Source of the DNA: a virus
Lineage: Duplodnaviria; Caudoviricetes
Length of the DNA: 64,000 nt
Reading direction: 5' to 3' (one strand)
IMG/VR virus record: IMGVR_UViG_3300037067_021615
Span: 38,662-102,661 of that record
The notes beneath the pieces were generated by a model. That model was not told the origin of the DNA and made no database searches. It was given only the letters and a program-made list of their open reading frames with translations. Position 1 is the first letter of the stretch. The number at the start of each line of letters is the position of its first letter. Position numbers and translations under genes: made by a program. Positions 1,123 to 55,503 of this stretch are shown in pieces.

Positions 1123-1557
1123 TTAATATGGGCAACTTGAGGAATCCATTGCCTTTTTTGCAATATCCTTTACAATGTTTTTATCGATAGTTTGAGCTTC
1201 TTTTATGATTGCTTCTAATTCTGCCTCATAATCCATTGACCTAAAGTTTGTCAAATCTTTTATCATTTCATCGGTAACAATTAGTAACATTATAAACCAT
1301 CTTAATTTATTTGTTTGTGTTCCTTCACATATAAGGTCTTTACATTCATAATTGGGGTCGCAATCTTTAAATAATTTTCCAATAGCAGTTTCACCAAAAG
1401 GAAGTTGTTTGTGTTCCCATAAATAATCTGTATATACACGTGACCTGTCACTTACCACTTTCCGTCCTTTTTTTTCAATTCTTTTATATGCAGCTTTTCT
1501 TCGAACTTCTAAGTGACGTTCTGCGGCCTCTTTGGTATTAAAATATCTTCTTTTCAT
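1123..1557 (-). CDS. Hypothetical protein with C-terminal major-capsid spine-helix-like segment
   Basis: TDEMIKDLTNFRSMDYEAELEAIIKEAQTIDKNIVKDI resembles gp23-family ELAQDLxAxHxxDAxAELxxxLxxxIxxEIDREI. Confidence 0.7.
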   Translation of the reverse strand: MKRRYFNTKEAAERHLEVRRKAAYKRIEKKGRKVVSDRSRVYTDYLWEHKQLPFGETAIGKLFKDCDPNYECKDLICEGTQTNKLRWFIMLLIVTDEMIKDLTNFRSMDYEAELEAIIKEAQTIDKNIVKDIAKKAMDSSSCPY

Positions 1558-1567
1558 TTTAAGTTAT

Positions 1568-2773
1568 TTAAACTGCCACTGGGGCTTTTATTGCTGACAA
1601 TGGATTATAATCAATTATTTTAATGTCGTCAATTCTAAAATCAAAGATATTTGTTATTTCTGGGTTTAATTTTAATTTTGGAAGTGGAGGACCATAATAA
1701 TTCCCAATGCTTCTATCTATTTCTTCTTTGGATAAAGAATAAAAATCTATAATCTCAGAATTTAACTCTCTTGTTCTATTTAACAATTCATTCACTTGGT
1801 TTTTATGATTAAGATATAAATGCAAATCTCCAAAGGTATGAACAAATTTATATGGTATCATATTTACTACTTGAGCAACCATATCCAGTAGCATAGCAAA
1901 AGACGCTATGTTAAAAGGAACTCCGAGAAAGGTATCTGCGCTTCTTTGATACAACTGTAAAGAAAGTCTAAATCTTGGAATTTTAAATGTTTCGCTACTT
2001 AATAGTTCTTGAATTTGTTCTTCGGTTCTTCCAGTTCCTACGACCCCTAATTCTAAAATATCATGGCCATCTTTAATAAAAATATTCATTCTTTCTTCGA
2101 AAGTGAGAGGTTCTGTAATAAATTGAAACAATGTGTGACATGGTCTAAGCGCCATTTCATTTAATTCATTAACTTGCCAGGCAGAAACGATGATACCTCT
2201 GTCATCTGGTCTGTTTTTTAATGTATCAATTACAACTTGAATCTGGTTTATGCCTTCTATAATTCCATTATTCCATGGATTTGCTGGAATTTCTGTTTTG
2301 CCGCAATTTATCCACTGCTTACCATAAACAGGGCCTAAATCTCCATAATCCAATGCAAATTTTTCATCAATTTTAATTCTTTCTATAAATTCTTCTTGAG
2401 ACATTATTCGAAAACTTTCGCTAGAAATATCTATAATGTGTAATTGGTCTACTGGCCTTAAAAGATTAGAACAAATTTTTTTATATTTAGCATAAGCCCA
2501 TTCGTCCCAAATATGAACATTATTATCAACTAAATACTTAATATTCGTATTCCCAAATATTTTATATTTTTCTGGCATTGCATTTAAAAACCAGAGCAAT
2601 TCGTGTATAACTCCATTTGTATATGTTTTTTTAAGAGTCAATAAAGGAAATCCATCTTTCATATAATAAACAGATTGATGCCCAAAAATTGATATAGTTC
2701 CTGTTCCAGTACGGTCTGTTTTAGTGCGTCCTTCTTTAAGGATGGCTGTAATTAAATCTATGTATTGTTTCAT
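1568..2773 (-). CDS. thyA: Thymidylate synthase
   Basis: DRTGTGT, HELLWFL, LGPVYGKQW, catalytic PCH, YQRSAD, PFNIAS, GDLHLY; carries insertions. Confidence 0.97.
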   Translation of the reverse strand: MKQYIDLITAILKEGRTKTDRTGTGTISIFGHQSVYYMKDGFPLLTLKKTYTNGVIHELLWFLNAMPEKYKIFGNTNIKYLVDNNVHIWDEWAYAKYKKICSNLLRPVDQLHIIDISSESFRIMSQEEFIERIKIDEKFALDYGDLGPVYGKQWINCGKTEIPANPWNNGIIEGINQIQVVIDTLKNRPDDRGIIVSAWQVNELNEMALRPCHTLFQFITEPLTFEERMNIFIKDGHDILELGVVGTGRTEEQIQELLSSETFKIPRFRLSLQLYQRSADTFLGVPFNIASFAMLLDMVAQVVNMIPYKFVHTFGDLHLYLNHKNQVNELLNRTRELNSEIIDFYSLSKEEIDRSIGNYYGPPLPKLKLNPEITNIFDFRIDDIKIIDYNPLSAIKAPVAV

Positions 2774-2778
2774 ATAAA

Positions 2779-3222
2779 TTATTTTATTTTTGTACTACCA
2801 AACCCGTTTTCTCCACGAACTGTATCAGAAATAACAAGTACACTATCTAATTTTACTTGTTCTACTTTTGTTATAACCATTTGAGCAATTCTATCACCTT
2901 GATTTACTGCAAAATCCTTATCTGAAAGATTGATAAGAATAACTCCAATATTTCCTCGGTAGTCAGCATCAATGGTACCAGGAGTGTTAAGAACAGTTAT
3001 TCCATGTTTTAATGCCAATCCACTTCTAGGCCTAATTTGAGCTTCAAATCCTACAGGGAGTTCAATAAATAAATCTGTCTTAATTAGAACTCTTTCAAAT
3101 GGTTTAATCCATATTGTTTGTTCATTTTCAATACTTGCTTTTAAATCCATTCCAGCAGATAGCGTTGTTGCATATTCAGGTAGGGAATTTTTTGATTTGT
3201 TTACGATTCTTACTATTGTCAT
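2779..3222 (-). CDS. dut: Trimeric dUTPase
   Basis: [36 protein letters not shown]. Confidence 0.97.
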
Positions 3223-3238: not shown

Positions 3239-3269
3239 CAAATATATAAAAAAATAACAATTATTCAAA
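3239..3269 (-). promoter_or_regulatory. Bacteroidota housekeeping-type promoter for dut-thyA operon
   Basis: Minus strand TTTG(3266-69)-N19-TATATTTG(3239-46). Confidence 0.8.
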
Positions 3270-4736: not shown

Positions 4737-5626
4737 TTAGTTTTATATATTATTAAATGTGGGTGAATTTCTATGATTCTTTTCCAATTAGTTTCATTTA
4801 ATTTATAATAGCAGCATAAATCTATATATTCAGATGGGCTGTTTATTATCAACTTTTCCCATCCAAGAGCAGAAAGTTCTTCTTTATATTTTCTATCTTT
4901 AATTAAGAAGTTAAAATCTTGATTTTTAAATAAGCAAATAAGTTCAACGCTATTATAAATATCACTTTGTTTAAATTTATTTAAATCGCAATGATTTATT
5001 AACTCTGGTCTAATTTTTAGTATTTCTATCCATTTTCTTGCTGTGAGCTGTTTTAAATCTAAAATATTAAGAAACACATTTCCAGTATTAATAATTATAT
5101 CACATATATGATAATCTTTTAATTTTTTTAAATCAAAATTTCTTATCATATCTTCTGAAAAATTATTATATTCTATTATTTCATAAATTTCTTTGGATGT
5201 AAAATTGTATTTTTTAATATCTACTTTTTTTGAGATTTCATCAGCTCCAATAGTGAGTAAGCAAAAGGCGTCTTCGTGACCTATGTTATTCAAATCAATA
5301 TTAATTTTATCAATTAAATATGGACGAATTTTAAGCATGTTTTTTATTTCTTTTACAGCATAATTATATTTTGACAAATCCACAAAGTCTGCTATTTTTG
5401 CATTTCTAGCTACTACCCTTACAATTTTCATTCTGTCAATTTTATTCCATGGAATCATTTTGTGTAATTCCTCATTATCAGCAATTGACCTATCTGGTAT
5501 TTTATTATAATCAGCGTATTGACATATATGATATAATTCATCTTTGCTAAGTTCATGCCATTCATCCGATATAATTTTTGAAAGAAAAGCTTGTATAATA
5601 ATATTTGTTTTTTCGTTTATATTCAT
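4703..5626 (-). CDS. Alpha-solenoid repeat protein
   Basis: About 23-aa repeats D[LI]xK[LYF]xxxxWxx[IL][LI]xxxP. Confidence 0.6.
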   Translation of the reverse strand: MNINEKTNIIIQAFLSKIISDEWHELSKDELYHICQYADYNKIPDRSIADNEELHKMIPWNKIDRMKIVRVVARNAKIADFVDLSKYNYAVKEIKNMLKIRPYLIDKINIDLNNIGHEDAFCLLTIGADEISKKVDIKKYNFTSKEIYEIIEYNNFSEDMIRNFDLKKLKDYHICDIIINTGNVFLNILDLKQLTARKWIEILKIRPELINHCDLNKFKQSDIYNSVELICLFKNQDFNFLIKDRKYKEELSALGWEKLIINSPSEYIDLCCYYKLNETNWKRIIEIHPHLIIYKTNYNCLPKNDLI

Positions 5627-5634
5627 TATATTTG
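5604..5634 (+). promoter_or_regulatory. Bacteroidota-type promoter
   Basis: TTTG(5604-07)-N19-TATATTTG(5627-34), upstream of 5676. Confidence 0.7.
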
Positions 5635-5675
5635 CAATATTATAAAATATATATTATTTAAATAAAAAAATCAAT

Positions 5676-6026
5676 ATGGAAGAAAATAAAAAAATAATAG
5701 CAATTGATGTTAATAAATTAATCATCAGAACTTATAATAAGATTGCTATATGGAATAATCAAAGTGCATCAGATGAAGAAAAATCAATGATGTTAAAAGC
5801 ATTATCACATGATATTGTATCAGATATTATAACTACAGCATTTAGTAATTTAGAAGGAACGAAAGTAAGAGAAGAAATTATTCCAGAACAGCCAAAGAAA
5901 TTAGTTGTACCTGAAGAAAATAAAGATGCAGTTGTTATAAAAAATGATAAAAATACTGCTTCCAAAGCAATAAAGCCAAAGGGAATACTTTATAAACTAT
6001 TTAATGCAAAACAAAGTGATGATTAA
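5676..6026 (+). CDS. Hypothetical protein
   Basis: ORF with own host-type promoter. Confidence 0.6.
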   Translation: MEENKKIIAIDVNKLIIRTYNKIAIWNNQSASDEEKSMMLKALSHDIVSDIITTAFSNLEGTKVREEIIPEQPKKLVVPEENKDAVVIKNDKNTASKAIKPKGILYKLFNAKQSDD

Positions 6027-6033
6027 ATATTCC

Positions 6034-6606
6034 TTATTTTTTAAGATTTGTATCTTTATTTTGCATTTTGTATAAGTCAATTTCCTCTTCTGTTGTTTTT
6101 TCTCCCAAGCCGTCATTACTAAATTTAATGATATCAAATTTATTTGGGTCCATTTCTTCTTTTAAAAGAGTTTTTCTGTTTTTTTCTTGATATAATGGGT
6201 TTTTTAATTGCTTTTTTTGCTCATTTTCTAACAATCCACAAAGCTCCTTGTATCTTTTAGAAACATTTTCCATAGTGTTTTTTTTACTTTCTTCCATGCT
6301 TTCTTTATTTTCTTCTTCTTTTTTAGATTCTTCGGTTTTAACAGATTCTGCTTCTTTCTCCATTTTTTTAAGTCTTGTATAATAGTCTGGTAATTCATCC
6401 ATATGTGTTAGAACTATTTTAAAAGTTTGCATTGGGTCATCATTAGTAATATCTGTTTCTGGGCTTTTACTTCCATGTTCTAATTCTACTAACATTCCTT
6501 GAATCATTTCATTTATATCATATTTAGAAATATCCAAGTCCATTTTTTTTGCCAACAATTCAATTATTTTTTTAGTATAGCCTTTTGCCTTTTCATTCGT
6601 TTCCAT
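6034..6606 (-). CDS. DUF5661-like protein
   Basis: GMLVELEHG...DITNDD...KIVLTHMDELPDYYTRLKKME; RYKELCGL motif; TATTTATA at 6623-30. Confidence 0.7.
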   Translation of the reverse strand: METNEKAKGYTKKIIELLAKKMDLDISKYDINEMIQGMLVELEHGSKSPETDITNDDPMQTFKIVLTHMDELPDYYTRLKKMEKEAESVKTEESKKEEENKESMEESKKNTMENVSKRYKELCGLLENEQKKQLKNPLYQEKNRKTLLKEEMDPNKFDIIKFSNDGLGEKTTEEEIDLYKMQNKDTNLKK

Positions 6607-8519: not shown

Positions 8520-9263
8520 CTATTTTTTTCTTTTAGACCCCTTTTTTGGACCTCTTTTTTTTGGTCTTCCTGGACCTTTTCTACTTTTTCGTTTCTTTTT
8601 TGGTTCTGCAGAATAATTTACTACTTCTTCTATTGCTTTGTCTAAAATAGTTTTCCCTTGTTTAGGCTCATCTATAACTTGTTTTTCTTGAGATTCAAGT
8701 AATAATGCTAAATTAGTATTAAGTGGTTGACGAAGATTATCAAGTATTCCAGATTTTTCCCATTTTTCAATAAGTTCTTCTTGCGTTTTTTTGTCTTTTG
8801 ACAAAGGAGTATTAATCTTATCAATGTCTGATTCTGTTTTAATAACTTCTCCTAGTTCTGTTTTGGCAACTTCTGGTTCTATTTTAACAACTTTTTGTTT
8901 AGAAATTTTTTGCTTTATTTTTTTTGTTTGCTTTTCTTTTTCCGTTGATGATTTATCATCGGTTAGGGAACTATGTAAATTGAGTAAAAATAACTTATTA
9001 TCAATCTCTTCTTCCTTATACCCAATGTAATATTTTAAAAATTCTGGCTTATTTTCTTCTTTAATATCTATAATTCCTTTTCTAGAATATATTTTTAAAG
9101 AATTAGAAAGATGATTTGTTTGTGAATAAACTATTTCTCCTGGGCGCAAATCAATTTGAATATCATTGCTAAAAATATCTTTAAAAAAGATTCTTATTTT
9201 TTCAGTGGCATTATGTCTTTCGTTGTTTAAAAATGTTACTTTAATGTCTTTTGTAGAACTCAT
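8520..9263 (-). CDS. Hypothetical protein with capsid-N-terminus-like segment and basic AT-hook-like tail
   Basis: LIEKWEKSGILDNL...NLALLLESQEKQV; tail RKGPGRPKKRGPKKGSKRKK. Confidence 0.7.
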   Translation of the reverse strand: MSSTKDIKVTFLNNERHNATEKIRIFFKDIFSNDIQIDLRPGEIVYSQTNHLSNSLKIYSRKGIIDIKEENKPEFLKYYIGYKEEEIDNKLFLLNLHSSLTDDKSSTEKEKQTKKIKQKISKQKVVKIEPEVAKTELGEVIKTESDIDKINTPLSKDKKTQEELIEKWEKSGILDNLRQPLNTNLALLLESQEKQVIDEPKQGKTILDKAIEEVVNYSAEPKKKRKSRKGPGRPKKRGPKKGSKRKK

Positions 9264-9357: not shown

Positions 9358-11052
9358 TTATTCTTTTGCTTTAAACAAAGGATTAAGTACAAGCTTATTT
9401 GTAAAATGGTCAATAATATAAGTTTTATTTTGTTTAACATCAGATTCTGAAAGTCTAAATACAATCATACTACCTTTTGCTTTTGGAACATCTAAAAAAC
9501 CTTTTTCTTCCCCAGAAAATGGAGTATTGCATAAATCTGATTCCAATGGTTTGTTAGTAGCTTCAAATTCTTTATTTGTATCAGACTCATATTCTTTTCT
9601 AGAAACTGTATCTGATTTATCTTTTATATTACAGAAACAATCATTTTCATATAATTCTTTCCATCTTTTTGATTGCTCTTTTTGTGTTAATTTTTCTGTA
9701 ATAACATATCTTTTATTAATTCCTTTTTCTTCATTTTCAGTCAAAGAAGAAAATTTTCTTTTTGTTAAATTAAGTTTTTTCTTATAAGTTTCTTCAATAC
9801 TTTTAGCTGTTTCTTCTATTTGATTTAATTCCCCATGCCCCGTTTCTTTTAGCTCTTCTGGGCTATTAACTTTGATACCATGTTTCCCCATTGTGTAATT
9901 ATGTTCCATCCCCTTTGGCGGCCATAATTTTTCACTCATTGGAACTTCTTCCACATAAGGAGTTTTTAAATTTTCTGTAATAAGTTTATAACTTCCATTT
10001 TCTTGTCTAACCAAATGGGGTCTTGGAGTTCTCATTTGACCATAAGTTGTGTTTTTTACAGCTTCACTCATTTGAACTTTTTCATATCCCAAATTTTTAC
10101 TAGCTTTATCTTCATGTTCTCCCCAACCGAATTTTTTGGCAAATCCAGGTCCAACCGAATTTTTATCTGCACCTTTTCCTTCGGTATCAGATGCTACTGG
10201 TCCTGCTAATGGAGCTGGAGATGTTGTTATTTCCTCAATTGTTTTATCTTCACTCCCAATAACAAGTTTTTTATCAGTTGGCTCTCCAGTTGGTGTTTCT
10301 GGGGTTTTAGCTCCCCTTTTTTCTTTCTCTTCGTTTGACTCAAGAGATTCGTTTACAAAATTATATATTTTTTTTCCAGCTTCTTCAAAAGAGCTTGATA
10401 AGATGTCTGTTAATTTCATATTATATTTATTTTCTTTTACAATTGAATCATTCATATTTTTTTCATTTTTATCATCATTTGCAATTTTGGTACCAACTAA
10501 ATATTCTGCTTCAGCTTGAGCAATTGGCTTAAAAAATTTTTTAAAATCTTTTATAAATGTTTTTTCATTTTCAATACCTGAAATAATCCCACTTTTATTT
10601 AATTTATTAGGAGCATATGTATCCTTTTCTGATGATTGGTGAAAGGCTGCAGCTTCTGTGTTTTTATAATCTATATGAACAGTTTTATCTTTTATTTCTA
10701 CATAAATTTCACTAACTATTTTTTTTCCGCCAAAAGTAGAGGTTTTTTGCATATATGAAACTGGTTTTGTAGCTCCCATATTAAGCATTTTTGGAATAGA
10801 AACTGTTACATTTAATTTCCCTTCTTGCGTTCCTTTCCCAACTTCTTTTTCTTTCCCATCTTTTCCTCCAGCAGCTATAACGAACATATAGCTATCTTTT
10901 TCTTCGTAGCCTAATTCTTTAAAAGCATTAATTGTTTCTTCTTTAATTATTTCTTCAATGTTTTCTCCTACAATTTTTTTAATTTTTTGACGTAGAGCAA
11001 AATCATCTGTTTGTTGTACAACGTTCTTTGGATATATTTCTTCTTTTTCCAT
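9358..11052 (-). CDS. Large Glu/Lys-rich putative head-internal protein (ATG at 11052)
   Basis: LRQKIKKIVGENIEEIIKEE; many [ILVM]xE sites; late motif 11070-77. Confidence 0.65.
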   Translation of the reverse strand: MEKEEIYPKNVVQQTDDFALRQKIKKIVGENIEEIIKEETINAFKELGYEEKDSYMFVIAAGGKDGKEKEVGKGTQEGKLNVTVSIPKMLNMGATKPVSYMQKTSTFGGKKIVSEIYVEIKDKTVHIDYKNTEAAAFHQSSEKDTYAPNKLNKSGIISGIENEKTFIKDFKKFFKPIAQAEAEYLVGTKIANDDKNEKNMNDSIVKENKYNMKLTDILSSSFEEAGKKIYNFVNESLESNEEKEKRGAKTPETPTGEPTDKKLVIGSEDKTIEEITTSPAPLAGPVASDTEGKGADKNSVGPGFAKKFGWGEHEDKASKNLGYEKVQMSEAVKNTTYGQMRTPRPHLVRQENGSYKLITENLKTPYVEEVPMSEKLWPPKGMEHNYTMGKHGIKVNSPEELKETGHGELNQIEETAKSIEETYKKKLNLTKRKFSSLTENEEKGINKRYVITEKLTQKEQSKRWKELYENDCFCNIKDKSDTVSRKEYESDTNKEFEATNKPLESDLCNTPFSGEEKGFLDVPKAKGSMIVFRLSESDVKQNKTYIIDHFTNKLVLNPLFKAKE

Positions 11053-11113
11053 TTGCAAATAGATTTTTTTATAAATATTAAAAAAAAACCTTTTTACATT
11101 TTTATTTTAAAAT

Positions 11114-11447: not shown

Positions 11448-11843
11448 TTAATTTTTTTTAAATTCTTTGACACTAATTCTTTCATGTGCCGTGTGTTTAT
11501 CCCCACATTTTGAACATACACAATCATTTAAATCTTTGTATTCTTCTTTCTTTTCTGAATAAAAAGCATATCCAACTAATGTTGTAGAATGCATTTTTGA
11601 CCCACATTTTGGACAAACTTTATGAGCTTTGCTATATTTTCTCATGAATTTTTTATATTCTTTGCTGGGCTTATCTACGCATAAAGATGTGTATGGCAAA
11701 TATATATACGCAGATTCTATATATTCTTTTTCAATTGATACTTCAGCGACATTCATTTTTTTAATTTCAATTGTTTCATAAAATTCTGGATTAACTTTTT
11801 TTAAAGTATAGCGAAAAGTTATTTTTTTTATGTTCTTTTTCAT
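11448..11843 (-). CDS. Zn-ribbon protein with major-capsid C-terminal-like motifs
   Basis: FRYTLKKVNPEFYETIEI, ESAYIYLPY, then CPKCG...CSKCG. Confidence 0.7.
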   Translation of the reverse strand: MKKNIKKITFRYTLKKVNPEFYETIEIKKMNVAEVSIEKEYIESAYIYLPYTSLCVDKPSKEYKKFMRKYSKAHKVCPKCGSKMHSTTLVGYAFYSEKKEEYKDLNDCVCSKCGDKHTAHERISVKEFKKN

Positions 11844-20955: not shown

Positions 20956-21855
20956 TTAATTAAACTCTTTAGAAATTCTATTAAGTATTTCAAACAATCT
21001 AGTATCTGGATATGTATCAAATTTATCTTTTCTTACAGTGGAGTGTGACCATATTCCAGGCAAACTTTTGTTAATTACATCTTGATTGTATTCTAACCAA
21101 CTTTTATCAAAATTTTTTTGAACTTTTATGCTATATTTTTTAATTAAAAATCTCAAAAGACTTTCTAAATTTTTTAATTGTTCATCAGTATAGTTAAAAT
21201 AATATTTATATCCTCTAAATGGCTGGTCAAGTATATATACATTTTTAGTATCAACTTTTGTTGTATAGTCATTAGGCCAGGCAAAAAAATCATTTCCCCT
21301 TTTAATAAGAGGGCCAAAAGCACAAATCTCAATTCCAATTGAAATTCTATCCAATTTCCCATTTGTTCCCTTTATTCCAAGATGAAAACCCCAATAATCT
21401 GGATTAAAAGCTTGAACGATTGTTCCTGTATTTCCATCTATTACATAGGCAGTAGCAACTCTTGGCTCGTCGCTATTCCATCCATTAATAGTTCCTTCTG
21501 CACTTGGACGACCTGCTGTAAAATGGATAAAAATCTGACTTTTTGAAGTTATTTGTTTAACATATTGATTTTCTGGCATCTGGCAATCCGTCCTTATTTC
21601 AAGGCCATTATAATTAATTGCTTGTAATTGAGTAAGGTCTTCTTTTGAAGTTTTTTTCTGTGCGGCTTTTAACGTTGTTAATGTTTTATCATTTACAATT
21701 CCATCTTGTGGAATTCCATATTTTTTTTGAAAGGCTTTTATAGACCTAAGTGTTTTAGGCCCAAAAGAAGAATCAACTATTAAGTCATAACCTAATAATG
21801 ATAACAGTTTTTGTACTTCTGCTACTTCTGCACTTTTATCCCCAAATTTTATCAT
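20956..21855 (-). CDS. Endolysin: peptidoglycan-binding domain plus Amidase_2 N-acetylmuramoyl-L-alanine amidase
   Basis: VQKLL..LGY..FGPKT..FQ..DGIV; IHFTAG, SIGIEI, SHSTVRKDKFD; late motif 21873-80. Confidence 0.9.
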   Translation of the reverse strand: MIKFGDKSAEVAEVQKLLSLLGYDLIVDSSFGPKTLRSIKAFQKKYGIPQDGIVNDKTLTTLKAAQKKTSKEDLTQLQAINYNGLEIRTDCQMPENQYVKQITSKSQIFIHFTAGRPSAEGTINGWNSDEPRVATAYVIDGNTGTIVQAFNPDYWGFHLGIKGTNGKLDRISIGIEICAFGPLIKRGNDFFAWPNDYTTKVDTKNVYILDQPFRGYKYYFNYTDEQLKNLESLLRFLIKKYSIKVQKNFDKSWLEYNQDVINKSLPGIWSHSTVRKDKFDTYPDTRLFEILNRISKEFN

Positions 21856-26909: not shown

Positions 26910-27839
26910 TTAATTATTAAATAATTTTTTTTGTTTATTTTCTTGTAGGAGTTCTACATATTGATTATATTTTGAATTACATAATGGATGAATACCTCCT
27001 TTATATTTGCAAAACATACAGTTATATTTTTCATTACCAGTAAATTTAACTTTTGGAAAAATTTTTTCTATATGAATGTTTTTTAAAGTATCTCCTAATT
27101 TAGTTAATGAATAGAATATTTCATCTTCAGTAGAATTGATATCGACTATTTGTATTTTTCCAAACCCTTTTGATATATTTTTTTTATCATTAAGTCTATT
27201 TAAAACAATATATTTGCAATCTATTTTATCAAGAGGAATTTTATTTTTTCTTGCCCAAAAAAATTTATAAAACCTCATTTGACATAAAAATATTTCATCT
27301 TTTTTCTTTTTATCAACATCCCATTCTTCCCCAGAAGTTTTCCAATCAATTATTAAAAATCTTCCAGTGGCTGGATTATAAGCTATAAGGTCTATAAACC
27401 CTTTAAAATAAAATTTTTTATATATTATTTCGTATAATGGTTCCTCCACATTAACTATTTGATACCCTTTTAGAAGAACTTCTGTATCCAAGACTGACAA
27501 AATGTGCATCCCCTGTTCAATAAAGTCATCAACTTCTTTAAATTGCTTATCATGGAGCATATTGTCCATCATATCTTTTTTGAATTTATCTGCAAAATAT
27601 TTTATTTTTTGGTCTTTATTCAATCCGTTTTTTACTCCCATTTCTATAGATTCATGAATTGCATTTCCAAAAAATAAATGTATAGATTGTTCCTGAATAT
27701 CTAATGCTAAATATTTAAAAATTAAATGTTTTTGACCACATTCATTATAAAGAGAAAACTCACTAAAACTAATGTGAGTATTATTGTTTTGATTTAAATT
27801 TGTATGTATTTCACTTTTAATTATTTTATTATCTGTCAT
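26910..27839 (-). CDS. PD-(D/E)XK (Cas4/RecB-like) nuclease
   Basis: SFSE..C; GNAIHE; GFIDL..IIDWKT; CMFC..C cysteine set; TATATTTG at 27855-62. Confidence 0.88.
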   Translation of the reverse strand: MTDNKIIKSEIHTNLNQNNNTHISFSEFSLYNECGQKHLIFKYLALDIQEQSIHLFFGNAIHESIEMGVKNGLNKDQKIKYFADKFKKDMMDNMLHDKQFKEVDDFIEQGMHILSVLDTEVLLKGYQIVNVEEPLYEIIYKKFYFKGFIDLIAYNPATGRFLIIDWKTSGEEWDVDKKKKDEIFLCQMRFYKFFWARKNKIPLDKIDCKYIVLNRLNDKKNISKGFGKIQIVDINSTEDEIFYSLTKLGDTLKNIHIEKIFPKVKFTGNEKYNCMFCKYKGGIHPLCNSKYNQYVELLQENKQKKLFNN

Positions 27840-33266: not shown

Positions 33267-34265
33267 TTAATTTAATATTCTTGATAATTTATAAATAAAG
33301 TCTATTTTTTTTCTATTTTTTAAAAGCTTAATTATAGCTTGAACTCCATTTTGCTCATAATGATAAGAAATATCTCCTAGCCCTTTTAAGTCTATAAAAT
33401 AAACATCCAATCCTAAAGAAGAAAGTTGTTCATAAATTTCAAAACTATCTTTAATAGCATCTTCATCTAAGCATATAATAACAGTGGAATTATGTTCAAT
33501 AAGTTTGGATATTAATAGCCATGATGGTGTTTTCCCTAACATAGGTATTGAGTTTGGTATTCTAAACATGTCAAAAACACCCTCCACAAGATACACTGGC
33601 AAATCCCAATTTATATTTCTCTCATTAAATATTATATCATATTTTTCTGGAACATTTTTGCTTAAAAAAACTTTTTGGTCTGGTTTATAATATGGTGGCT
33701 TTACTTTTTTGAGAAAGGTTCTAGCTTCAAAATAATTAATACTTCCACAATCATTTCGAGATGGTATTATTATTCTATTTCTATAAGCTCCAACTTCAGT
33801 ATATCCTATTTCATAGTCTACTAATTGATTAAAAGTCAGTTTTCTTATTTTTGTCATGTAATCATATGCTATTTTATGCATTGTAGATTTTACAGTAGAT
33901 GTAATCAAGGTATATCCTTCTGGAAGGGGGCATGTTATTAAATTATGATTTATAGTGTTCTTTCGGAAAACATTAACAAAGTTTCCCATATATTCTGGCA
34001 TTATAAGTTTTAATCTTTTATAATCCTCTGATGAGCCATATTTATGAACTAATTTATGAACAATTCCACTATCTTTACATTTCCAACATTTAAAAATATT
34101 TTCTTCTGTATTAAAGGCTAAATTAAATTTATTTATATCATTTCTACAATCATGACTAGGGCAATTAAATTCCCATTGTTTCCTTGCTTCAAAATCTTTT
34201 GAGGATTTTGGTTCCCCAAGAAAATTTTTCAAAATAGATAATATAATAATTTTTTGGTCTTCCAT
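33267..34265 (-). CDS. DnaG-type DNA primase
   Basis: Zn finger CPSHDC..CWKC; RIIIP; TOPRIM VEGVFD..LDED. Confidence 0.88.
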   Translation of the reverse strand: MEDQKIIILSILKNFLGEPKSSKDFEARKQWEFNCPSHDCRNDINKFNLAFNTEENIFKCWKCKDSGIVHKLVHKYGSSEDYKRLKLIMPEYMGNFVNVFRKNTINHNLITCPLPEGYTLITSTVKSTMHKIAYDYMTKIRKLTFNQLVDYEIGYTEVGAYRNRIIIPSRNDCGSINYFEARTFLKKVKPPYYKPDQKVFLSKNVPEKYDIIFNERNINWDLPVYLVEGVFDMFRIPNSIPMLGKTPSWLLISKLIEHNSTVIICLDEDAIKDSFEIYEQLSSLGLDVYFIDLKGLGDISYHYEQNGVQAIIKLLKNRKKIDFIYKLSRILN

Positions 34266-55122: not shown

Positions 55123-55503
55123 TTAAGATTGAATTACTAAATCTATAGAAACATTATCTTCTACTTTTAAATCAATAATAGTATAATAAAGCGTTAGATG
55201 TAAAAGATGAGCATCTTCATCAAAAACAAATTTTATGTTCTTAACTTCTATTTCTGGAAAAAACTCTATAAGTTTTTGCTTTAATTCACTAATTAAACTA
55301 GCCTCACTTAATTCATCCCATATTTCCATAATATAATTATATAAAGGAGAATATAAAGAATTATTCATAACTCTATGCCCCTTTTTTAAGGTAAGAAATG
55401 ACGTTAAATTAGCTTTTATAGCATCAATATCTATTTCTGTATATCCAAAAATTCCACCTTTATTTGTTTCTGTAAATGGAAAATTTATTCCTAATGACTG
55501 CAT
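55123..55503 (-). CDS. Baseplate gp25/GPW-like protein
   Basis: GINFPF, IKANL..LT.KKG.RVMN; late motif 55521-28. Confidence 0.85.
   Translation of the reverse strand: MQSLGINFPFTETNKGGIFGYTEIDIDAIKANLTSFLTLKKGHRVMNNSLYSPLYNYIMEIWDELSEASLISELKQKLIEFFPEIEVKNIKFVFDEDAHLLHLTLYYTIIDLKVEDNVSIDLVIQS

Follow-up and report, generated by a model that had tools for sequence, protein, structure and literature searches.

A small gene at the end of a dut–thyA operon

We analysed a 64,000-nucleotide stretch of tailed-phage DNA (the window), which is the right-hand 64 kb of the 102,661-bp IMG/VR record IMGVR_UViG_3300037067_021615, and within it a small gene on the minus strand. The gene occupies window 1123–1557, with its stop codon at 1123–1125, and encodes a protein of 144 amino acids (aa) made up of a basic N-terminal domain and a C-terminal tail. 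By sequence comparison, the tail is homologous to one segment of the gp23-type major capsid protein (MCP) of the phage clade to which the record belongs. The gene stands last in an operon in which dut, thyA and the small gene follow one another on one strand, as the preliminary description of this DNA had it. The features of the locus are as follows.

1123–1557, minus strand: small gene, 144 aa, belonging to a small-protein family of phages (open reading frame (ORF) list)
1153–1278, minus strand: MCP-derived tail, residues 94–135 (hidden Markov models (HMMs), hhalign, reciprocal genome searches)
1276–1557, minus strand: N-terminal basic alpha/beta domain, residues 1–94 (AlphaFold2, charge, conservation)
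1568–2773, minus strand: thyA, thymidylate synthase of 401 aa, with insertions (Pfam PF00303, E = 4.8e-88)
2779–3222, minus strand: dut, dUTPase, first gene of the operon (Pfam PF00692, E = 3.4e-32)
1086–1125, either strand: bidirectional intrinsic terminator between the small gene and the convergent ORF 710–1093 (hairpin)
3239–3269, minus strand: predicted Bacteroidota sigma-A-like promoter (TTTG, 19-nucleotide spacer, TAnnTTTG; read from the sequence)

The tail is homologous to the spine segment of the MCP

The preliminary description had likened residues 94–132 (window 1162–1278), which lie inside the tail, to the sequence pattern of the gp23 family. The Pfam Gp23 profile (PF07068) was the top match of the protein (E = 0.15; residues 95–136 to profile positions 155–198), at a score of 11.8 bits that falls short of the gathering threshold of 24.4 bits. 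PHROG 138 (major head protein) matched the same stretch, also below threshold, at E = 0.42. Sixteen close homologues of the small protein were found, and six of them matched the Gp23 profile, the best at E = 0.0054.

Profiles built from the clade's own MCPs gave significant matches in both directions, as the preliminary description had anticipated for MCP profiles, though Pfam and PHROG stayed below threshold. A complete related phage of 372 kb, IMGVR_UViG_3300014208_000024 (G001), carries an orthologue of the small gene after its own dut and thyA (L003:5995–6381), and also encodes a true gp23-type MCP of 560 aa (L005:487–2169, minus strand) that scores 204.6 bits against Pfam. BLASTP of the window protein against this MCP gave E = 4e-5 at MCP residues 335–370. 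An HMM of the C-terminal part of the family scored 29.7 bits on the same MCP, with a 28.3-bit domain at residues 344–387, whereas the best score among 20,000 shuffles of the MCP was 8.9 bits. Alignment of 88 family members with 78 MCPs by hhalign gave a probability of 93.1% (E = 3.1e-7), pairing query residues 91–135 with MCP 341–387; the two sequences nearest to the capsid protein, P0088 and P0090, had been excluded from the family alignment. The likeness to the gp23 pattern is thus borne out both by the shuffles and by hhalign.

Searches of whole genomes pointed to the same segment. A six-frame search of G001 with the 65 C-terminal residues gave no match other than the orthologue and, at E = 7.8e-5 and 48% identity, the spine segment of the MCP. 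In five more phage records with gp23-type MCPs (136–519 kb), the family profile matched the spine segment of the MCP best in every case, with E from 1e-5 to 2.5e-3. In the reverse search, the MCP profile picked out the small ORF in its own 102-kb record at E = 4.2e-6. The MCP gene was not found in this record, which is 29% complete.

The same MCP stretch aligns with residues about 247–308 of T4 gp23 (PDB 6uzc, 5vf3), so that the T4 sequence quoted in the preliminary description is correct; the counterpart of the tail itself lies at about 269–308 of the 521 residues of T4 gp23, and at 341–387 of the 560 residues of the G001 MCP. The conserved tail positions T95 (98%), M/L98, D101 (92%), D109 (82%), E113 (74%) and L114/L117 coincide with conserved MCP positions, in a segment that is nearly invariant across the 78 MCPs; L102, F105, I108 and I118 are further positions that tail and MCP have in common. 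In searches of PDB sequences at E ≤ 10, the whole-family profile found no gp23 or gp24 chain and the single tail found nothing, T4 gp23 included, indicating that the tail resembles the clade's own capsid proteins rather than that of T4. The nearest cultured relatives of these capsid proteins are in Flavobacterium phages (45% identity, C-terminal half) and a Microcystis phage; others are in uncultured huge phages. On the strength of these profile, shuffle and genome comparisons, we have shown that residues 94–135 are homologous to the MCP segment that runs from the end of the E-loop return strand through the short helix into the spine helix.

Outside residues 94–135, hhalign detected no MCP similarity, and the N-terminal domain is therefore without detectable relation to the MCP. 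The possibility that the whole protein is a shrunken capsid protein, with the hairpin as E-loop and the N-terminal helix as N-arm, was rejected for the same reason. A full HK97-type architecture (N-arm, E-loop, P-domain and A-domain; 450–650 aa) is not present in a protein of 144 aa.

Predicted structure of the protein

AlphaFold2, run on a 16-sequence alignment, modelled the protein with a mean predicted local distance difference test (pLDDT) score of 89, and above 90 for residues 1–100. The predicted N-terminal domain comprises a helix (9–29), two strands (34–37 and 40–53), a second helix (58–66) and a third strand (75–90). The tail, predicted as a strand (93–95) and three helices (96–103, 110–122 and 126–139) with a loop at 104–109, was modelled as part of one chain with pLDDT 75–84; the helix at 110–122, continued in 126–139, is the spine-like one. 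In this model the order of strand end, short helix, loop and long helix is that expected for the gp23 segment.

Net charge is +11 over residues 1–40 and −4 in the tail, consistent with the earlier claim of an unrelated basic N-terminal domain. This domain matched no family in Pfam, PHROG or NCBIfam. A Foldseek search of the AlphaFold2 model against PDB and BFVD returned nothing at E ≤ 0.001, a wide fold search with VIA-align gave a best Z of 4.2 among mixed small alpha/beta proteins, and the ESM Atlas yielded no usable match.

Conservation and age of the family

A profile search of 1.84 billion proteins recovered 79 representative clusters at E ≤ 1e-3, with members of 59–210 aa and none of MCP size. 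By tblastn, the protein had no match at E ≤ 1 in 50,697 GenBank phage records, so that the family is so far known from metagenomes only. A search of IMG/VR for related loci found one locus with alignment A1 and none with A3 or A4.

In the 88-sequence alignment, A12, D37 and S39 of the N-terminal domain are invariant, and a hydrophobic strand and the helix with T95 and D101 come after them in the chain. Within the tail, conservation is highest at the strand end and first short helix, which 87 of the 88 members possess; 70 have the spine-like helix proper, and 34 the last helix. The protein of one close relative (P0004, from L099) stops right after the first helix, before the spine-like helix, and directly ahead of the terminator. 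In three longer members (P0023, P0068 and P0019; 199–210 aa), the tail is succeeded by a further C-terminal domain, about 80 aa long and of unknown family.

In comparison with the closest relative (L111, 72% identity), the tail has a ratio of nonsynonymous to synonymous substitution rates (dN/dS) of 0.21, as against 0.34 in the N-terminal domain. The value for the tail indicates purifying selection, and hence that the tail is maintained as a peptide. A 26-codon ungapped core shared with the G001 MCP gene has 46% amino-acid and 55% nucleotide identity, with 12–13 of 26 third positions matching. We read these values as about background level, and the capture is therefore old and predates the radiation of the family. 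A recent capture from the MCP gene was accordingly rejected, there being no DNA-level signal in comparison with that of G001.

We also considered whether the last helix might be a C-terminal tag common to many proteins. When 400 ORFs of the 102-kb record were scanned for the helix motif with a regular expression, only the small ORF matched, and the idea is not supported in this record; P0038 and P0076 are the sole family members that end in a tag-like motif.

Other capsid pieces in related phages

Capsid-like pieces recur in other small proteins. P0088 (164 aa) is built from two spine pieces in tandem. It matches PHROG 138 over the same profile positions as the family does (E = 1.1e-16), and it is also reached by the family profile in the search of 1.84 billion proteins (E = 1e-4); P0088 bridges the family and the capsid protein. 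Its gene (L095:6001–6495) lies in an accessory region and adjoins DUF5661 and PcfJ genes, types that also occur in the window. P0090 (63 aa) is a spine piece without the N-terminal domain. A complete phage genome of 518 kb with terminal repeats (G002) has a 130-aa ORF (L094:1372–1764, minus strand) with a single spine piece bearing an insertion, again without the N-terminal domain. This ORF and P0088 consist entirely of the piece that spans the E-loop return strand and the spine helix.

Other parts of the MCP are found elsewhere. In P0053, the family N-terminal domain is followed by a tail that, judged by eye and unscored, is like the N-terminal propeptide of the MCP. G001 encodes a 291-aa dCMP deaminase (L102:1333–2208, minus strand; PF00383, E = 8e-26) with a C-terminal extension of about 110 aa, which is 36% identical to residues 394–501 of the G001 MCP, an A-domain piece (E = 4e-17). 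This fusion is kept in four clusters, and the same piece also occurs in stand-alone proteins of 160–185 aa. Within the window, residues 137–199 of the 247-aa product of ORF 8520–9263 (minus strand) are like MCP 1–60, the propeptide region (E = 4e-7; E = 3.7e-7 with the MCP profile). The G001 orthologue of this ORF is without residues about 105–187, and the MCP-like piece therefore lies in a lineage-specific insertion.

Two further observations concern such pieces. On the contig of P0053 (L096:8386–10334), the capsid gene seems to be interrupted, a 246-aa Gp23 piece standing ahead of a stretch of about 1.2 kb in which no gene was called, and a UvrD helicase with intein-like domains is encoded next door. 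The window ORF 11448–11843 (minus strand; 131 aa), a zinc-ribbon protein, has two weak permuted matches to MCP 504–558 (E = 0.002 and 0.005); no orthologue of it was found in G001.

Promoters and probable timing

The promoter ahead of dut has the form TTTG/TAnnTTTG, which we take to be that of Bacteroidota primary sigma factors, and it occupies the same place upstream of dut in L003 and L099. Its TAnnTTTG −7 element also precedes the exonuclease and primase genes of the window (ORFs 26910–27839 and 33267–34265). A second class of motif, ATATTTATA, occurs in 24 copies in the window, 10–20 nucleotides ahead of gene starts. It precedes the endolysin gene, genes of the baseplate cluster and many unknown genes, examples being upstream of 20956–21855, 55123–55503, 6034–6606 and 9358–11058; ORF 8520–9263 is preceded by this class as well. 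The ATATTTATA class is probably that of late promoters, and the small gene has no copy of this motif of the structural and lysis genes. Because a host-type promoter motif precedes dut, we infer that dut, thyA and the small gene would be transcribed early by the host polymerase.

A separate match to the sigma-70 consensus (11 of 12 positions; window 1604–1632, minus strand) lies within the 3′ end of thyA, about 47 nucleotides ahead of the start of the small gene. In DNA so rich in A+T the match may have arisen by chance, and promoters of this kind would not be used by the inferred host.

Genomic context

The record has a G+C content of 27%, and its CheckV completeness of 29% implies a phage of roughly 350 kb; among its genes are T4-like ones for baseplate wedge, primase, helicase and endolysin. 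The position of the small gene next to thyA is kept in the window, L003 and L099, the gap between the thyA stop and the small-gene start being 10 nucleotides in the window and 1–2 nucleotides in the other two. The terminator hairpin (−18.6 kcal/mol, z = −8.1) has A and T runs on either side, and a hairpin with a T run also stands directly 3′ of the orthologues in L003 and L099. The thyA product, of 401 aa, covers the 266-position Pfam model from end to end, so that about 135 of its residues must belong to insertions.

In L098, thyA and the small gene are separated by a GIY-YIG homing endonuclease gene (5273–5998), while in L111 such a gene (521–1255) is directly upstream of the small gene, so that this junction looks like a homing site. 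Both endonucleases are free-standing and I-TevI-like. Two further family members (L100 and L096) lie in other neighbourhoods of nucleotide or DNA metabolism.

Discussion

The results show that the tail of the small protein is a domesticated and selected fragment of the clade's MCP, carried on an otherwise unrelated basic domain. As to its role, the reading that we favour, and to which we would give about an even chance, is that the small protein is a competitive mimic of the MCP, directed at a reader of unassembled capsid protein. The protein would be made early, with dUTPase and thymidylate synthase, from the host-type promoter, and the early character of this promoter would place it in the cell before capsid protein is made. 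Its tail would then display the most conserved element of the MCP, in the manner of a microProtein, to the factor that normally reads this element on unassembled MCP, while the basic N-terminal domain would contribute an anchor or another activity, possibly by binding nucleic acid. Candidates for the reader are a host sensor of capsid protein, for which the tail would be a decoy, and a component of phage head assembly such as a scaffold, protease or chaperone; we lean slightly towards the host-sensor decoy because of the probable early expression of the protein. The finding of capsid pieces on the same N-terminal domain, alone, in tandem and on an enzyme suggests that being capsid-like is itself the selected property.

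Several observations weigh against competitive mimicry. The spine-like helix is absent from about a fifth of the members, P0004 among them, and is thus not indispensable. The tail is 40–46% identical to an MCP segment that is itself nearly invariant, so that a faithful copy of an epitope has not been maintained. The family was not found in G002, which is complete and close by its MCP, or in four other records. When the orthologue of G001 was used as BLASTP query the spine match was not reported, and the search with the MCP profile misses this orthologue at E ≤ 1, its tail being more diverged from the MCP. Finally, the evidence for early timing consists of promoter motifs.

Some of these facts would fit a role for the tail in structure without any mimicry, in which a capsid-derived strand–helix–helix unit was co-opted long ago as an ordinary part of the protein, for example as a helix that packs on its sheet or serves in oligomerization. 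The part of the tail that is conserved in 87 of 88 members is continuous with the sheet of the N-terminal domain, the spine-like and last helices are often lost, AlphaFold2 models the region as part of one chain, and the identity to the MCP segment has fallen as described above. Nevertheless, the N-terminal domain of P0053 appears, by eye, to bear a different piece of the MCP, the spine piece occurs alone or in tandem in mini-proteins, and other MCP pieces are fused to unrelated proteins of the clade. The needs of a fold alone explain poorly why capsid pieces should be chosen repeatedly, and we regard this alternative as rather unlikely, if the most substantial of those considered. The likeness might instead be a matter of chance or convergence between acidic amphipathic helices, or of neutral debris from recombination or homing endonucleases beside thyA. 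The sub-threshold scores with Pfam and PHROG, the lack of a T4 gp23 chain in the PDB search and the GIY-YIG genes directly upstream of the gene in two relatives could be read in this way, as could the MCP piece in the lineage-specific insertion of ORF 8520–9263, from which it is clear that pieces of capsid genes do move around. The statistics have already largely refuted such an explanation, however: none of the 20,000 shuffles came near the observed score, the MCP spine was the only other match in whole genomes, the hhalign probability is high (93.1%) and bridging sequences exist. In addition, the tail is under purifying selection and is conserved across the 79 clusters, and we consider an accidental origin very improbable.

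Two further proposals give the tail a binding partner other than a reader of free capsid protein. It might be a docking module that pairs with the A-domain piece on the dCMP deaminase, restoring part of the capsid fold, and so ties the deaminase and the products of the dut–thyA operon into a complex for nucleotide synthesis. In T4, dCMP deaminase and thymidylate synthase are reported to associate in a deoxynucleotide (dNTP)-synthesis complex. The small protein and the deaminase fusion occur together in G001, the two pieces (341–387 and 394–501) are adjacent and non-overlapping in MCP numbering, and each of the two genes has a link to nucleotide metabolism; neither was found in five other records. 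Against this, the co-occurrence comes from one genome and is confounded by relatedness, the partial record of the window contains no deaminase, and neither the propeptide-like tail of P0053 nor the mini-proteins that lack the N-terminal domain fit the scheme; we think docking improbable. The other proposal makes the tail a prohead-targeting signal that would co-assemble the basic N-terminal domain with scaffold or MCP, giving an internal head protein delivered with the DNA, a purpose like that of the capsid targeting sequence of T4. The charge of +11 over residues 1–40 is in keeping with this, the internal proteins of T4 being basic, and spine and propeptide pieces face the inner, scaffold side of HK97-type proheads. 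The promoter is of the early host type, however, with no motif of the structural and lysis genes, and the capsid-like signal is C-terminal rather than N-terminal, making this a proposal in which we place equally little confidence.

A broader reading takes in the other capsid pieces of these phages. Domesticated MCP pieces dispersed on early accessory proteins and enzymes, comprising propeptide, spine, A-domain and possibly C-terminal strands, might together constitute an undescribed system, either a panel of decoys or docking tags made from a split fold, though we consider such a system unlikely. As decoys, they would blind host sensors of capsid protein before the real MCP is made; as docking tags, they would bring enzymes of nucleotide synthesis together through a partly restored capsid fold.

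Of the phage molecules that bacterial immune sensors read, capsid proteins are among the main ones, and their fold is most conserved in the spine region. An action of the tail on such sensors would represent a new type of counter-defence; an action on head assembly would be a new way of controlling assembly. Taken with the deaminase fusion and the stand-alone mini-proteins, the tail shows that the structural genes of huge phages are a source of pieces that these phages reuse as modules in other proteins. As an example the family is concrete, small and testable: its proteins, of about 100–140 aa, have two parts that can be separated, and the cognate capsid proteins are known. Our literature search found no description of capsid-derived accessory proteins or of microProtein-like fragments of phage capsid proteins.

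Comparison with known systems

With T4 gp23 and gp24 (PF07068, PHROG 138), the tail shares by homology the segment of strand end, short helix and spine helix, in the same predicted order. Only about 42 of the 144 residues match, however, and the N-arm, E-loop, P-domain sheet and A-domain are absent. Unlike the gene for T4 gp23, the small gene is in a nucleotide-metabolism operon and is probably early, and its product cannot build a shell.

The Gol peptide, which lies in the first quarter of T4 gp23, activates the Lit protease (PMC3014915). Like the tail, Gol is a short internal piece of a capsid protein, and it is itself biologically active and read by a host defence factor. In contrast to Gol, which belongs to the MCP itself, the tail is encoded by a separate phage gene and derives from the spine region; the position of the tail, at MCP 341–387, led us to reject the idea that it mimics the Gol peptide. 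Moreover, Gol triggers defence, whereas the tail is proposed to blunt it.

The capsid targeting sequence of T4, found on IPI–III and Alt, is an N-terminal peptide of about 10 residues that is cut by the prohead protease and is not capsid-derived. It resembles the tail in being a short peptide on unrelated, often basic proteins, which in T4 it ties to head assembly; the tail differs in being C-terminal and about 42 residues long. Eukaryotic microProteins and dominant-negative fragments are small proteins that retain a single interaction element of a larger one and work through competition. The proposed action of the tail would be of this kind, with the difference that the element is here fused to a separate conserved domain.

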